Source of the DNA: Synergistales bacterium
GTDB taxonomy: Bacteria > Synergistota > Synergistia > Synergistales > JAFGMB01
Length of the DNA: 64,000 nt
NCBI GenBank assembly: GCA_963666205.1
Contig: OY762654.1
Coordinates: forward strand, 672,001-736,000
Reading direction: 5' to 3'
Part shown: positions 57,938 to 63,239 of the stretch, one piece after another
How positions within the stretch are numbered: position 1 is the first letter of the stretch
How the letters are laid out: each line of letters starts with the position of its first letter
Notes under the pieces: generated by a model
What the model saw: only the letters and a program-made list of their open reading frames with translations
Told to the model about the DNA's origin: nothing
Databases searched by the model: none
Made by a program: the position numbers and the translations under genes

Positions 57938-59160
57938 ATCAGATGGTAGACTTTGCTGACAGGATCAGCCGTTTGGGAACTGAGACAGCTTTTGCTGTAG
58001 GTGCGGAGGCAAAACAACTTGCCGACAGGGGATTCAAAGTTTATCCATTCCATCTGGGAGACCTCGATATTGCAACTCCGGAATATGTAGTGGAAGCTGC
58101 TGTTAAAGCTATGAAGGATGGCAAGACAGGTTATTGCGCAACTCCAGGTATTGCTCCCCTCAGGGAGGCTCTGGCAGATGATGTAGGTAAAGCAAGAGAG
58201 CTAAAGCTGGACATGGAAAACGTAAGTATACAGACCGGGGGAAAACCTGTAATAGGGAAATTCATCATGTCTCTCATGAACCCGGGAGATGAAGTCCTTT
58301 ACCCTAATCCGGGATATCCCATCTATGAATCTTTGATCAGATTTCACGGTGGAGTAGCAAAACCATATGGTTTTATAGAGAACGACCTTGGATTTGCTCT
58401 GGATTTTGACAGTATCGAAAGTCAGATAACCCCTAAAACAAAGATCTTTATTTATAACAACTACCATAACCCTACAAGCGCCGAATCAGATCCAGCTGAG
58501 ATGCAAAGACTGGCAGAATTATGCATAAGACATGATCTTTACGTTCTGAGTGATGAGGCATATTTCGATATCCTTTATGAAGGACAGGGTCAGAGCATAG
58601 CAAGCCTTCCGGGAATGTTTGATCGAACTGTTATTCTTTACACATTTTCGAAAAAATTCGCCATGACCGGGTGGCGCCTTGGTGCTGCTATAGGCCCCAA
58701 AGAAATAATATCCATAATTTCCAAACTTAACATAAATGATGAATCATGCTCAAATCATTTTGTCCAGTGGGCGGCAGTGGAAGCCCTTAAAGCTCCCGGG
58801 GATAACTACAACAGAATGCTGGCGGTTCTCAGGGAACGCAGGGATGTGGCTGTTGATATTCTCAACTCCATGGAGGGAATAAAGGTTCACCGGCCCAACA
58901 GCACTTTTTACCTTTTCCCGAACGTTACCTCTGCCATGAAACAACTGGACATCAAAGGAGTAGAGGAATTCAGAAAGGTCATCCTTGACAAAACAGGAGT
59001 TTCTTTTACCACTAGAGATCATTTTGGCACTCCCCTACCCTCTGAAACCCAGAAATATATAAGACTTGCCTATTCCGGGATCACAAAAGAAGACATCCTC
59101 GAAGGCCTTGGTTTGATGAAGGAATTTCTGGCATCTTCATCGCCCTGTAAAGCACTCTAG
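57934..59160 (+). CDS. Class I/II PLP-dependent aminotransferase (AspC-like)
   Basis: PGDEVL-PNPGYPIY, HNPT, SDEAY, FSKKFAMTGWRLG, YIRLAY; overlaps the upstream stop (GTGA). Confidence 0.9.
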   Translation: MNQMVDFADRISRLGTETAFAVGAEAKQLADRGFKVYPFHLGDLDIATPEYVVEAAVKAMKDGKTGYCATPGIAPLREALADDVGKARELKLDMENVSIQTGGKPVIGKFIMSLMNPGDEVLYPNPGYPIYESLIRFHGGVAKPYGFIENDLGFALDFDSIESQITPKTKIFIYNNYHNPTSAESDPAEMQRLAELCIRHDLYVLSDEAYFDILYEGQGQSIASLPGMFDRTVILYTFSKKFAMTGWRLGAAIGPKEIISIISKLNINDESCSNHFVQWAAVEALKAPGDNYNRMLAVLRERRDVAVDILNSMEGIKVHRPNSTFYLFPNVTSAMKQLDIKGVEEFRKVILDKTGVSFTTRDHFGTPLPSETQKYIRLAYSGITKEDILEGLGLMKEFLASSSPCKAL

Positions 59161-59175
59161 ATATCCCTGCATCAT

Positions 59176-59220
59176 AAAAGCGGGTGTTGGAGCATGTAAT
59201 AGCTCCAACACCCGCTTTTT
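59176..59220 (+). terminator. Rho-independent terminator
   Basis: AAAAGCGGGTGTTGGAGC / GCTCCAACACCCGCTTTT arms with a T run. Confidence 0.85.
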
Positions 59221-59290
59221 ATCCATTCCCAAAATCTTCTGTAAAAACATAAAGATTTACTATATAAAGGATTATTAAGACATCTTTATA

Positions 59291-59338
59291 GTTTTACATG
59301 TAGCGTCCTGGAGATCAGATTTATGCTATATGTAGTGG
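59291..59338 (+). promoter_or_regulatory. Tandem NrdR-box-like operators
   Basis: TTTTACATGTAGCG and TGCTATATGTAGTG, 32 bp apart, upstream of nrdD; resemble the CACTATATATAGTG-type consensus. Confidence 0.6.
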
Positions 59339-59417
59339 TAAAATAGTTTGGCTACCCTTAAATACATCAACTTCGAAGTGCAGAACTATGAAAGAATATG
59401 TACAGGGAGGAACACTC

Positions 59418-61457
59418 ATGTCTATTCGATATATAGAAAAACGTGACGGATCAAAGGATATATTCGATAGTAAAAAGATCAGGTATGCGGTTATCAAGGC
59501 AACGAAGGCAGTTGAAAGGAATGAACCTGATACGATAGCCGATGAGATAACTCTCGAAGTGGTGTCTTATCTTAATATTTTTTTTAACAAGGAAGGGATA
59601 CCCACAGTCGAACAGGTTCAGGACCTTGTGGAAAAAATACTTATAGAAAAAGGTTATGCTGATATAGCCAAAGCATACATCCTCTATCGCGAACAACACG
59701 CAAAACTCAGGGATACCCGTGAACTCCTGGGCAACGCAGCCCAGATGGTTAATAAATACCTTGAGAAGATAGACTGGAAGGTCAATGAGAACAGTAACAT
59801 GAGTTACTCCCTGCAGGGACTGAATAACTATATTGCGTCAGAAGTAACTGCACAATACTGGCTAAATGAAATATATCCTCCACAGATACGGGAAAATCAT
59901 ATTGGAGGAGATTTTCATATTCATGACTTGAATAACCTGTCTGTATACTGCTGCGGATGGGATCTGCAGGATCTCCTTCTGAGCGGATTTACGGGTGTAC
60001 ATACTAAAATCGGCAGTAAACCGGCAAAACATTTCAGGACTGCACTCGGACAGATCGTGAATTTCTTTTATACCATGCAGGGAGAATCTGCAGGAGCCCA
60101 GGCTTTCTCAAATTTTGACACGTACCTGGCACCTTTTATCTATTATGATGAACTAAGCTACAGAGAAGTCAAACAGGCTATGCAGGAATTTGTTTTCAAT
60201 CTGAATGTTCCCACCAGAGTAGGTTTTCAGACCCCATTTACCAATATAACAATGGACCTGATCCCGCCATCTTCCATAAAATCACTTCCGGCAATAATAG
60301 GCGGCAAGTTTCAGGAAAAGTCCCTTGGTGAATTCCAGACAGAGATGGACATGCTGAACCGGGCTTTTGCCGAAATAATGCTTGAGGGAGATGCTTCGAA
60401 CAAAGTATTTCCCTTTCCCATACCCACCTATAATATTACCTCGGATTTCTGCTGGGATAACGAGATACTGGAACCAGTATGGGAAATGACATCAAAATAC
60501 GGCATTCCCTATTTCTCCAACTTTGTGAACTCCGATATGGATCCGGACGATGCCAGAAGTATGTGCTGCAGACTCAGGCTGGATAACCGGGAATTGAGGA
60601 AACGTGGCGGTGGTCTTTTTGGATCCAATCCCATGACTGGCTCCATTGGAGTAGTGACCCTTAACATGCCCCGAATCGGTTATCTTTCAGGGGATGAAAA
60701 TGATTTTCTTCGAAGGACTTTCGACCTCATGGATATAGCAAGGGAAAGCCTGGAGATAAAGCGCAAGATCCTTGAAAGATTTACAACACATAATCTTTAT
60801 CCTTACTCAAAGTTCTATCTTCGTAACATTAAAGAATCTTCCGGGAAGTTCTGGAACAACCATTTCAATACTATCGGCCTTAATGGAATGAATGAAGCCG
60901 CCATCAATTTCATGGGGAAAGACCTTTCTTCCACCGAAGGAATTGCTTTCTGTACAAGGGTCATGGAGGCAATGAAGGAAAGGATGATCCAGTTCCAGGA
61001 AGAGACTGGCAACCTTTATAATCTGGAGGCAACCCCTGCAGAAGGAGCAACCTACAGATTTGCAAAAACAGATAAGGAAAGGTTCGGAAACAGTATCATC
61101 TGCGCCAACGAAAAGAACTACAGGGAGTATGGTGCAGATCCCTATTATACGAACTCATCCCAGTTACCGGTTGGCTATACTGATGATATCTTTGAAGCTC
61201 TTTCGCTACAGGATGATCTGCAGACTTTATATACTGGAGGGACCGTTTTCCATGGATTTCTTGGAGAAAGCATGCCCTCCGGTAAAAGCACAAAACTTCT
61301 TGTACGTCGAATTGCTGAAAATTTCAGGCTTCCCTACTATACTATTACCCCTACTTTCAGTATTTGTCCCATTCATGGATATATTCAGGGAGAGCACGAA
61401 TTCTGCCCTTACTGTGATCAGGAAATCGGATATTCCGCAGAGGAGATCATTTCTTGA
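59418..61457 (+). CDS. nrdD: Anaerobic (class III) ribonucleoside-triphosphate reductase, large fragment with ATP cone, lacking the Gly-radical loop
   Basis: ATP cone (IEKRDG...VEQVQDLVE...AKAYILYR), HIHDL, YCCGW, SMCCRL, EATPAE, Zn site CPIH...CPYC, then stop; no RVxGY. Confidence 0.92.
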   Translation: MSIRYIEKRDGSKDIFDSKKIRYAVIKATKAVERNEPDTIADEITLEVVSYLNIFFNKEGIPTVEQVQDLVEKILIEKGYADIAKAYILYREQHAKLRDTRELLGNAAQMVNKYLEKIDWKVNENSNMSYSLQGLNNYIASEVTAQYWLNEIYPPQIRENHIGGDFHIHDLNNLSVYCCGWDLQDLLLSGFTGVHTKIGSKPAKHFRTALGQIVNFFYTMQGESAGAQAFSNFDTYLAPFIYYDELSYREVKQAMQEFVFNLNVPTRVGFQTPFTNITMDLIPPSSIKSLPAIIGGKFQEKSLGEFQTEMDMLNRAFAEIMLEGDASNKVFPFPIPTYNITSDFCWDNEILEPVWEMTSKYGIPYFSNFVNSDMDPDDARSMCCRLRLDNRELRKRGGGLFGSNPMTGSIGVVTLNMPRIGYLSGDENDFLRRTFDLMDIARESLEIKRKILERFTTHNLYPYSKFYLRNIKESSGKFWNNHFNTIGLNGMNEAAINFMGKDLSSTEGIAFCTRVMEAMKERMIQFQEETGNLYNLEATPAEGATYRFAKTDKERFGNSIICANEKNYREYGADPYYTNSSQLPVGYTDDIFEALSLQDDLQTLYTGGTVFHGFLGESMPSGKSTKLLVRRIAENFRLPYYTITPTFSICPIHGYIQGEHEFCPYCDQEIGYSAEEIIS

Positions 61458-62149
61458 TTATAACTGGCATGCAGAAAGTTAGTCTCATTGATTATCCTGA
61501 ACATATTGCCTGCGTGATCTTTACAAGGGGGTGTAATCTCCGTTGTCCCTATTGTCACAACCCGGAGCTGGTGGATCCCGAAAGATACCCTGAAGAGAGT
61601 ATACCTGTTTCCGGTTTGTGGCAGTTTCTTGAAAACAGAAAGAGTTTTCTCGACGGAGTCTGCATTACAGGGGGGGAACCCACTCTCCAGGAAGACATTG
61701 AAGACTTTACAGCTAAAATACGATCAATGGGCTTTAAAATTAAACTGGACACCAATGGATCTAAACCGGATGTTCTGAAAAAACTCCTCAAGAAAAACCT
61801 TCTGGATTATGTAGCCATGGACATAAAAGTGCCTCTTGCAAGATATAAATCTGTTATGGGTTTTAAGGAAGACCCATCCTGTATAGGAGAAAGCATAGAT
61901 ATACTGGAAAATTCATACACCGTCCATGAGTTCAGGACTACAGTAGTTCCTGGAATCCACTCCTGTGAAGATATGGACATCATGGGAGATCTGGTCAAGG
62001 GAACGGATCTGTTTTTTATACAGAATTTCAGACCCAGTAAACATCTTCAACCCAGCATGGAGGGACTTAGCGGATTTCCAAAAGCAATGCTTGAGAGATT
62101 CAGGGATATCCTTGAAAAATATATAACGCATGTTTACATAAGGAACTAG
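61454..62149 (+). CDS. nrdG: Class III RNR activating enzyme (radical SAM)
   Basis: SLIDYP, GCNLRCPYCHN, ITGGEPT, KLDTNG, EFRTT; overlaps the nrdD stop. Confidence 0.92.
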   Translation: MIITGMQKVSLIDYPEHIACVIFTRGCNLRCPYCHNPELVDPERYPEESIPVSGLWQFLENRKSFLDGVCITGGEPTLQEDIEDFTAKIRSMGFKIKLDTNGSKPDVLKKLLKKNLLDYVAMDIKVPLARYKSVMGFKEDPSCIGESIDILENSYTVHEFRTTVVPGIHSCEDMDIMGDLVKGTDLFFIQNFRPSKHLQPSMEGLSGFPKAMLERFRDILEKYITHVYIRN

Positions 62150-62185
62150 ACCTTAATAATTGGACTTCAAAGGAGAGCGATGGTC

Positions 62186-62338
62186 ATGGAACAAAAGGAA
62201 CTGAAAAGAACCAGGTGTGAGGTATACTCTAGAGTGGTAGGCTATCTGACCCCGGTATCACAATGGAACAAAGGGAAAAAAGCTGAATTCAGAGACAGGA
62301 AAACCTTTGACAGTATTCTGGATGATATCAAGAAATAA
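62186..62338 (+). CDS. Stand-alone NrdD glycyl-radical domain (50 aa; 52 aa from alternative ATG 62180)
   Basis: Below the ORF-track cutoff. MEQKELKRTRCEVYSRVVGYLTPVSQWNKGKKAEFRDRKTFDSILDDIKK*; SD AAGGAG at 62170-62175. Confidence 0.9.
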   Translation: MEQKELKRTRCEVYSRVVGYLTPVSQWNKGKKAEFRDRKTFDSILDDIKK

Positions 62339-62465
62339 TTTTAATCCCCTTACCTGTTCGCAGGTAGGACCGATCTGAATAGATGAATCCCTGTACCTGT
62401 TTACTGTCGGCTATACTGTGGATCATCAAGTTTGAAGATGTAGCTTTTCGGAGGGGTAACTCAAT

Positions 62466-63239
62466 ATGAACTTTGCTGTGCTAGATCTTGAAACAAACGG
62501 TTTTAAAGGCACATCAGCAGTTTCAGCTTCATCCATTGTCTTTGACGAAAACGGAATAATTCTGAACTTTTTTAACAGGTATTACTATCCCACCGAAAGG
62601 CCTGATTATGGGGCTATAAGGGTTCATGGCCTTGACCCTTCAAGAATTACCTGGCTCAGAAAGGGGTATTCCTATCCAGAATATTTTTCTGATGACTGGG
62701 ACAGCCTCAGTTTGTTCTGGGAACATCACCATGTTGAAGCTATAACAGTACACAACCTTGGTTTTGACACATCTTTTATTCCCGACTCTGCAAAAAAGGA
62801 CCGTAAATGGTGGTGTTCCATGCTCGGACTTACCGACTTCTGTAAAATTCCGGGCAAAAATGGGCAATATAAATGGCCTAAACTCGAAGAGGCAAAAAAG
62901 ATCACGATGAATACCTTCAGTGCTGATGCCAATGTCCTAAGCACTGAAAGGGCAATATCCAGTCACATATGCCATAACTCTCTCAGCGACTGTATGGATC
63001 TTTACTCTATCTTTATAAGGATATGGAAAAACAGACCGGATCTCGTGAAATTCGCTTTTATAAAAAAAATGTTCATTCAGGCTAAATGGGAAAAATATGA
63101 ATGGGACCACTGTTGTGAACCTGACCGACATATATGGTCTGCCCTTCAGTTAAGTCTGGAAATAGCCCGACTTGCCGGTCTGGAAAAGAAAGAACGAAAA
63201 ATAATCCGCTCTCTGGAAGATCTATTTCCCGAGAGTTAA
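62466..63239 (+). CDS. DEDDh-type 3'-5' exonuclease domain protein
   Basis: VLDLETNG (ExoI), AIRVHG, HNLGFD (ExoII), KWPKLEE, HNSLSD (ExoIII). Confidence 0.78.
   Translation: MNFAVLDLETNGFKGTSAVSASSIVFDENGIILNFFNRYYYPTERPDYGAIRVHGLDPSRITWLRKGYSYPEYFSDDWDSLSLFWEHHHVEAITVHNLGFDTSFIPDSAKKDRKWWCSMLGLTDFCKIPGKNGQYKWPKLEEAKKITMNTFSADANVLSTERAISSHICHNSLSDCMDLYSIFIRIWKNRPDLVKFAFIKKMFIQAKWEKYEWDHCCEPDRHIWSALQLSLEIARLAGLEKKERKIIRSLEDLFPES

Follow-up and report, generated by a model that had tools for sequence, protein, structure and literature searches.

The window analysed here, a stretch of 64,000 nucleotides from a Synergistales bacterium (contig OY762654.1, positions 672,001 to 736,000), carries near its end an operon for a class III ribonucleotide reductase (RNR) in which nrdD, the gene for the catalytic subunit, is divided in two, with a complete activase gene, nrdG, lying between the pieces. 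The larger piece (the body) encodes an ATP-cone, the catalytic barrel and a putative metal site, and the smaller one encodes a peptide of 50 residues that bears the glycyl-radical loop. The parts of the locus, numbered from the first letter of the window, are the following.

59418..61457, forward strand: nrdD body, 679 residues, class III RNR catalytic subunit without the glycyl-radical loop (open reading frame, Pfam and NF006126)
59430..59702, forward strand: ATP-cone domain, body residues 5-95 (Pfam PF03477, E = 3.5e-20)
61365..61415, forward strand: Cys/His metal motif at the end of the body, C650-x2-H653 ... C663-x2-C666 (sequence motif)
61454..62149, forward strand: nrdG, radical-SAM activase, 231 residues (TIGR02495 and Pfam Radical_SAM)
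62133..62160, forward strand: promoter-like site just 5' of the peptide gene, TTTACA, 16 nucleotides, AATAAT (10 of 12 positions matching)
62170..62177, forward strand: Shine-Dalgarno-like AAGGAGAG, 8 bases ahead of the ATG at 62186 (sequence)
62186..62338, forward strand: glycyl-radical peptide ('mini-NrdD'), 50 residues (Pfam NRDD positions 531-562)

Two pieces of nrdD on either side of nrdG

The body is read from an ATG at 59418 (an alternative, longer reading from 59388 would give 689 residues) and ends in ...EFCPYCDQEIGYSAEEIIS, its stop falling 13 residues past the last cysteine of CPYC. Its catalytic barrel exceeds the cut-offs of all three family models, matching positions 1-529 of 562 of Pfam NRDD (PF13597; E = 2.6e-181, 604.5 bits against a cut-off of 26.2), positions 3-651 of 684 of NCBIfam NF006126 (1035 bits against 548) and TIGR02487 (515.1 bits against 326.35). 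The RVxG[YF] loop is absent from the C-terminus of this chain and is found, as SRVVGY, on the small stand-alone frame, which matches NRDD positions 531-562 of 562 (E = 9.1e-11, 41.5 bits against 26.2) and NF006126 positions 649-682 of 684. Judged by the ranges in both models, the two pieces therefore abut without overlap or loss. NRDD is the sole Pfam match of the peptide at E <= 0.1, and no family of the pyruvate formate-lyase glycyl radical type was found in it at that threshold.

The frame between the pieces encodes NrdG2 (TIGR02495, 209.7 bits against 131.15; Pfam Radical_SAM, E = 3.9e-20), a dedicated radical-SAM activase flanked on both sides by parts of its partner. It starts with a TTG that shares four bases with the nrdD stop (TTGA), and both this start and the N-terminus are kept in the three relatives compared (L015, L016 and L021). 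The peptide gene opens at 62186 behind its own ribosome-binding motif, an upstream ATG at 62180 offering a 52-residue alternative, and the presumed radical glycine is Gly19 within SRVVGY (codon 62240-62242). An earlier note, made from the letters of the DNA and a list of open reading frames, had described this same arrangement: a 679-residue NrdD with ATP cone, core and Zn motif ending 13 residues past CPYC, a stop overlapping the nrdG start, and the missing C-terminus as a discrete frame with its own Shine-Dalgarno sequence beyond an intact nrdG. The profile matches bear it out in each of these particulars.

The position of the split is exact. In the fused forms compared (7 relatives, viral contigs), the junction reads CPxHGY, 7 residues, CPxC, 3 residues and CEVYSRVVGY, and the division falls within the 3-residue gap that separates CPxC from CEVYSRVVGY. 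Alignment to the T. maritima NrdD chain 4COI places the body on residues 103-610 and the peptide profile on 613-647; every class III chain that the searched PDB copy returned is a single polypeptide. A Cys-rich metal site ahead of the radical loop, a feature of class III RNRs, is putatively present at the end of the body, where C650, H653, C663 and C666, recognised as a sequence motif, are unchanged in 15 of 15 bodies.

Two explanations would remove the split altogether. One is an assembly or sequencing artefact, the probability of which is close to negligible: a frameshift or nonsense error cannot put nrdG between the pieces, as the earlier note had argued, and the same order recurs in viral contigs as well as in 14 further genomes and in named records from several phyla. 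A DNA sequencing run also yields the entire 3.2-kb stretch in one contig with 0 differences, this run possibly being the window's own source. The other supposes that an ordinary one-chain NrdD is put together from the pieces once they have been transcribed or translated, by an intron, an intein, trans-splicing or ribosomal bypass. Phage nrdD genes with introns, inteins and homing endonucleases are known (accessible text of PMC3653736), and insertions of about 1 kb lie inside the body at several related loci. Joining is nevertheless extremely improbable here, as a complete and conserved nrdG with its own start separates the pieces, Rfam returned no intron family over 59000-63000 at E <= 1, and neither the body tail, with 13 residues following CPYC, nor the peptide head, with 10 preceding Cys11, comes near the size of a split-intein half. 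The tails and heads, moreover, differ in length and sequence across species, and no joined form occurs among contigs from RNA libraries, which can miss rare forms.

Conservation and spread of the two-piece layout

The peptide was used as a query against 40 relatives of the same order. A close stand-alone match was found in 14 of these genomes (59-94% identity, open frames of 56-289 codons), and a weaker match in 19, where it ends frames of the fused type (18 frames spanning 708-803 codons and one, at a contig edge, of 197); 7 of the 40 relatives have no match. Around each of 20 close peptide matches, about 12 kb were retrieved, and the order nrdD body-nrdG-peptide proved to be kept in 14 loci of 14 genomes spanning five family codes. 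The 14 orthologous bodies are 71-98% identical to that of the window, and all end 13-25 residues past CPxC in acidic tails that vary; the nearest named record, with a body 98% identical, carries the title Acetomicrobium hydrogeniformans. All 20 related peptide genes possess a start codon 7-23 codons upstream of the invariant cysteine (19 ATG and 1 GTG, assigned by hand), and nearly all are preceded by a GGAG-like motif. Across 21 aligned peptides, 17 columns are invariant, including C11, S15-R-V-V-G19, W27 and N28.

Selection on the peptide is equally apparent. Over the 35-codon core of the 15 operon peptides, the mean proportion of nonsynonymous differences (pN) is 0.11 against a mean proportion of synonymous differences (pS) of 0.84, the synonymous sites being saturated, and the median ratio of nonsynonymous to synonymous substitution rates (dN/dS) comes to 0.04 over the 17 pairs, out of 105, for which dS is finite. 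These values point to strong purifying selection on the core. They also bear on the possibility that nrdD is a broken, decaying gene, with deoxyribonucleotides supplied by a class II enzyme and the small frame persisting as a relic. The window genome does encode a class II NrdJ (PF02867 match; TIGR02504, 514.6 bits against 399.95), as such a scenario would have it. Decay is nonetheless highly improbable in view of a layout maintained across the five family codes with similar bodies free of internal stops, of peptides with few nonsynonymous differences despite saturated synonymous sites, and of start codons at every peptide copy with GGAG-like motifs at nearly all. In addition, genus g7 (genomes G008, G017 and G026, 97-99% complete) offers no other RNR that could have taken over: neither a PF02867 barrel nor TIGR02505 was found in these three genomes, and the split NRDD enzyme is the only RNR found there.

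Beyond the order, the two-piece layout is widespread. A word-index search of 5.8 billion proteins returned 120 clusters of 39-83 residues from Synergistales, Aminobacterium, Dethiosulfovibrio and Pyramidobacter, and also from Caldiserica and Patescibacteria; where named, they are called 'hypothetical protein' or 'anaerobic ribonucleoside-triphosphate reductase', in keeping with the earlier note's suspicion that short nrdD-like fragments already sit in databases. Among 1.84 billion representative proteins, searching with a profile brought up 4570 hits at E <= 0.001, 1498 of them at E <= 1e-10; the best 150 of the 4570 are all 48-149 residues long, and some short hits could be gene fragments. 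Among contigs from one genome per species, at least 597 stretches encode a relative, of which the best 80 were classed by script into 31 fused genes, 15 loci with nrdD-nrdG-peptide, 27 with nrdD-peptide-nrdG and 7 without a body in view. The survey of truncated nrdD, nrdG and mini-nrdD across genomes that the earlier note had suggested recovers the order in both samples, and adds a second gene order to it. Two loci qualify the counts: L132 (L132:3023-5135, title Syntrophomonas palmitatica), placed among the 27, has a fused nrdD matching in several frames and may be frameshifted in that assembly, and L172, among the 7, is cut by the contig end next to nrdG.

To judge by record titles, the order nrdD-nrdG-peptide occurs in Synergistota, Halanaerobiales and other Bacillota, and nrdD-peptide-nrdG in Patescibacteria, DPANN archaea, some Thermoplasmatales and metagenome-assembled genomes labelled Gammaproteobacteria. 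In the latter order, real stops (TAA, TGA and TAG) part the pieces, which lie in any relative frame with gaps of -1 to 211 bases. A quick, unrooted maximum-likelihood tree (LG+G4) was computed for 89 bodies, its rows being query-anchored tblastn segments from the best 80 loci by peptide similarity, the relatives and the viral loci, with tail columns excluded and 10 of 99 rows dropped for coverage below 80%. All 29 nrdD-nrdG-peptide rows fall on one side of a single branch (SH-aLRT 100), a side that contains a Synergistota clade of 21 rows, itself supported at 100, and a Halanaerobiales/Bacillota group with one viral contig among its members; in this sample, the arrangement of the window therefore arose once and was then kept. 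The order nrdD-peptide-nrdG is scattered among fused forms, requiring 9 changes, at least 5 of which are forced by supported branches, and the adjacent split therefore arose or reverted repeatedly.

A proposed two-subunit class III enzyme

Taken together, synteny, purifying selection, intact starts, the absence of any other RNR found in g7 and the complex model described below support well the earlier note's proposal of a natively two-piece enzyme. We consider it very probable that the locus encodes an obligate two-subunit class III RNR whose radical glycine resides on a separate 50-residue peptide. The window genome holds a single NRDD body, lacking the loop, and a single peptide gene, inside the operon; the peptide is the only radical domain there, and so it would be an obligate subunit. 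From these sequence features we infer that the two pieces bind each other, are activated and act as one enzyme.

In the mechanism that we propose, one operon would yield the products of all three genes, with nrdD and nrdG translationally coupled and the peptide made from its own ribosome-binding site. The body would contribute the ATP-cone, the catalytic barrel and the Cys/His metal motif, and the peptide the glycine that NrdG turns into a radical, presumably by abstracting a hydrogen from Gly19 as in other members of the family. According to the prediction, the peptide would add its N-terminal strand (Cys11-Tyr14) to the zinc-ribbon sheet with which the body ends, and its radical loop would enter the barrel much as a fused C-terminus does. 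By analogy with the family, the radical would then move to the active-site cysteine and a ribonucleoside triphosphate would be reduced.

The docking step draws on a structure prediction of the large fragment with the peptide, part of a check that the earlier note had proposed, and this model passed its controls. The prediction combined body residues 120-679, with an alignment of 15 rows, a zinc ion, and the peptide, with an alignment of 21 rows. All three runs scored 0.84 at the interface (ipSAE), against 0.00 for the highest of three controls; of 80 solved complexes, 58 came up to that mark, as did 2 of 110 mismatched pairs. The runs share at least 89% of contacts, with a partner confidence (pLDDT) of at least 78. 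The most confident predicted contacts run between residues 9-14 of the peptide and residues 646-650 and 658-663 of the body, and place the invariant Cys11 of the peptide beside C650 and C663 of the body; the first strand of the peptide is therefore predicted to complete the sheet of the metal motif. In the model, the peptide appears to sit where the C-terminus of a fused NrdD sits.

Transcript evidence comes from metatranscriptome contigs, in which the body is covered in two studies, the nrdD/nrdG junction is bridged in two and the peptide frame is covered in one (run X1, a 2.8-kb contig from 62103 on) and in part in run X2; stretches of nrdG without cover in single RNA runs, and the small shares in runs X4-X6 and X12, are evidence of nothing. 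Several considerations weigh against a two-subunit enzyme in use. These contigs establish presence only, as they may derive from DNA and show neither transcript ends nor levels. The complex score may reflect memory, because one-chain NrdD structures have been solved (8P23, 9D3X, 4COI, 4U3E and 1H78), and the model indicates that the pieces resemble the two parts of a normal NrdD, which is likeness and not binding. The related genomes are not independent samples; NrdJ is present in the window genome, and the split enzyme hence need not be essential here; and our searches found no protein-level or activity evidence for any split NrdD.

The closest solved comparators are the one-chain class III RNRs of P. 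copri (8P23, 9D3X), T. maritima (4COI/4U3E) and phage T4 (1H78). The enzyme of the window shares with one-chain NrdD/NrdG the ATP-cone, the barrel, the C-terminal metal motif, the RVVG[YF] loop and an adjacent radical-SAM activase, and differs in that the loop is a separate 50-residue product encoded after nrdG. A division of an RNR chain into two consecutive polypeptides has a parallel in the split class II NrdJa/NrdJb of Pseudomonas aeruginosa and Thermus phage phiYS40, in which a C-terminal functional module is found on the second polypeptide (accessible text of PMC9669993 and PMC3653736). That enzyme belongs to another class, however, and its C-terminal module, a zinc finger plus IscU-like part, serves reduction, so that its small piece is without a radical-bearing residue. 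The split phage nrdD genes described in the accessible text of PMC3653736 are intron, intein or endonuclease cases; they likewise have nrdD in pieces, but there the pieces are rejoined by splicing or interrupted by mobile elements, whereas here no intron or intein was found and the intervening gene is nrdG.

A further parallel is offered by GrcA/YfiD of E. coli and Y06I of phage T4, small stand-alone carriers of a radical glycine that, like the present peptide, also occur as phage-borne genes. They are activated by the activase of their parent glycyl radical enzyme (accessible text of PMC8683613), as the present peptide would be by NrdG. GrcA is homologous to the C-terminus of pyruvate formate-lyase and is a spare for an enzyme with its own radical domain. 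The peptide, by contrast, is homologous to the C-terminus of NrdD only, and the window genome contains no parent enzyme with a radical domain of its own alongside which it could be a spare. No description of an NrdD with its radical loop as a separate gene product was found in the published work covered, mostly open full text without supplements, and a split-off radical peptide is absent from the accessible text of PMC4390871, PMC11528403, PMC9669993 and PMC10433244. The two-piece layout is apparently undescribed in print.

To our knowledge, class III RNR biochemistry has been conducted entirely on one-chain enzymes, whose glycyl radical domain has to leave the barrel in a swinging motion before it can reach the activase. 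A natural, free 50-residue radical peptide, if confirmed, would provide a minimal, synthesisable substrate for NrdG, would render activation, docking and radical transfer separable for study, and would permit a direct test of the repair of O2 damage through subunit exchange. An immediate consequence concerns annotation, which calls the peptide genes 'hypothetical' or misses them and may score truncated nrdD bodies as pseudogenes. As the layout is common (Synergistota, Halanaerobiales, Patescibacteria and DPANN) and lone peptides occur in viruses, it also bears on the supply of deoxyribonucleoside triphosphates (dNTPs) in small-genome organisms and phages.

Peptide genes outside the operon

Both the breadth of the layout and its second gene order go beyond the earlier note, as does the occurrence of the peptide gene on its own in phages. 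In genus g7, each of the three genomes has 2-4 peptide genes. One unlinked paralogue (RTPCEIFSRVVGF...) is kept in all three (L030:5908-6180 and L031:5953-6144, reverse strand; L033:5977-6180, forward strand); it follows a PAS-GGDEF gene, is convergent with the genes for thymidine kinase and a MazG/PRA-PH-like protein, and bears Lys/Glu-rich extensions that bring its total length to 64-91 residues. Other copies lie in prophages: one (L018:5980-6132, reverse strand) has an integrase gene and a DnaC/IstB-like gene in its surroundings and follows a MazG-like gene, and another (L032:5998-6156, forward strand) is inserted between the small and large terminase genes of a Synergistaceae prophage. These orphan copies have a median dN/dS of 0.08 in the 8 of 15 pairs with finite dS; they, too, are under purifying selection.

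In IMG/VR, 196 stretches encode a relative of the peptide, and the best 80 of these loci were surveyed with retrieved flanks of up to 6 kb. At 68 of the 80, the peptide lies in a frame of 41-147 codons with neither a body nor nrdG in the flanks (4 of the loci touch the locus edge, which leaves at least 64); of the others, 11 are fused and 1 has the split operon. The 68 lone-peptide loci encode 54 distinct peptides with the motif, some of them identical to prophage copies. All five whole viral records examined (CheckV completeness 100, 100, 94, 60 and 56%) contain only the last 30-60 or so positions of the NRDD profile, and none encodes an NrdG above cut-off. In one complete record of 49.5 kb, the peptide gene (L043:6001-6108, forward strand) is located between the endolysin and holin genes, near RecE/RecT-like genes. 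Among deposited phage genomes, a tblastn search with the prophage peptide gave two weak hits, both to C-terminal ends of nrdD-like genes, and PHROGs holds no peptide family except the C-terminal end of phrog_487, NrdD; phages with a lone peptide have so far been seen only in uncultivated viral contigs.

Stand-alone loop proteins also accompany fused enzymes. Two Desulfobacterota genomes combine a fused NrdD (positions 1-562 in G042 and 1-546 in G043) with a separate protein of about 119 residues (L201:1486-1848, reverse strand; L202:1321-1680, forward strand) in which a Cys-rich ribbon precedes the CEVYSRVVGY loop and which no NCBIfam model names. Being about the size of GrcA and of the NrdD type, this protein is a candidate for a true spare part of class III RNR. 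A Falkowbacteria genome (G041) similarly has a fused NrdD and an orphan peptide.

Why the split is kept can be approached, tentatively, by extending the two-subunit reading to an exchangeable radical cartridge, a reading that is rather less likely than not. The earlier note had likewise supposed a replaceable part, by which O2 damage would cost just 6 kDa, and the additional peptide genes of other genomes and of phages lend this some plausibility, short of proof. The peptide might leave and be replaced: O2 would cleave it at the radical glycine, and a fresh, activated peptide could conceivably reload an intact 77-kDa body, the same socket perhaps being fed by the extra chromosomal and phage-borne copies. 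Phages with a lone gene of 40-90 residues might, on the same doubtful footing, plug the cartridge into the NrdD body of the host or repair a host NrdD cleaved by O2. Several observations are consistent with such exchange, namely the 2-4 peptide genes per genome in g7, for which no RNR besides the split enzyme was found, the unlinked copy conserved in all three of these genomes and the further copies in prophage contexts, the selection on orphan copies, the prevalence of the peptide without body or nrdG among the best viral loci, the restriction of all five whole viral records, three of them 94-100% complete, to the peptide part of NRDD, the gene set between endolysin and holin, and the pairing of fused NrdD with a 119-residue loop protein in Desulfobacterota. 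There is also a precedent, in that YfiD/GrcA and T4 Y06I rescue O2-cleaved pyruvate formate-lyase (accessible text of PMC8683613). Conversely, the sole peptide gene of the window genome lies inside the operon, and splits can be neutral, with the scattered nrdD-peptide-nrdG order fitting easy and possibly neutral splitting as well as it fits selection.

Subunit exchange would matter beyond this locus. In the accessible text of a 2026 review (PMC13450708), formate lyases stand alone among the classes of glycyl radical enzymes in having known spare-part proteins, and in that of a 2021 paper (PMC8683613), YfiD and Y06I alone are validated and spares for other glycyl radical enzymes are considered possible; repair by subunit exchange beyond pyruvate formate-lyase is raised and not shown in either text. 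A phage-borne cartridge, if real, would be the first spare-part system outside the formate lyases and among the smallest auxiliary metabolic genes known, sustaining dNTP supply during infection.

Two further features of the viral peptides were observed. A subgroup (L045, L066, L067, L070, L083-L086, L090, L102, L107 and L115, with the match at about 6001 in most) has kept an N-terminal extension of about 20 residues (NGDL..D.G..IPA) ahead of the radical-loop core. In the viral record G049 (C1:32227-32409, holding L076), the NRDD match reaches back to profile position 504 through 2 internal stops, and the upstream part may be the remnant of a once-fused nrdD ahead of the surviving peptide gene.

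The sequences flanking the operon parts of the window were also inspected for regulatory signals. The promoter-like site ahead of the peptide gene is the best of its region, which has a total of 10 such sites against 8.4 (standard deviation 3.3) in shuffles; with a count not above shuffles, it is only a hint. No terminators were predicted in 59100-62600 against 2.9 expected in shuffles, and the operon ends are not fixed thereby. NrdR is encoded in the genome. With up to 3 mismatches allowed, a 16-base consensus of its box found no site near nrdD, and the one site that it has in the window (37398) is no better than chance, 42 of 100 shuffles doing as well. In the gap between an aminotransferase gene and nrdD (59173-59254, reverse strand), two sub-threshold Rfam matches to small RNAs, Spd-sr07 (E = 0.3) and COG2827 RNA (E = 0.58), are probably due to chance.

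Directly 3' of the peptide gene lies a gene of 257 residues (62466-63239, forward strand) without a Pfam match and with a weak NCBIfam match to DEDDh exonuclease (E = 0.0043); its position is kept in L015 and L016, at 84% and 51% identity. Finally, many nrdD bodies (L038, L121, L123, L125, L134, L136, L160, L168, L171, L182, L184, L185 and others) are interrupted by insertions of about 1 kb at two shared points, one after query residues 271/272 and the other after 383/384, at the conserved Cys-Cys; these insertions are probably inteins.

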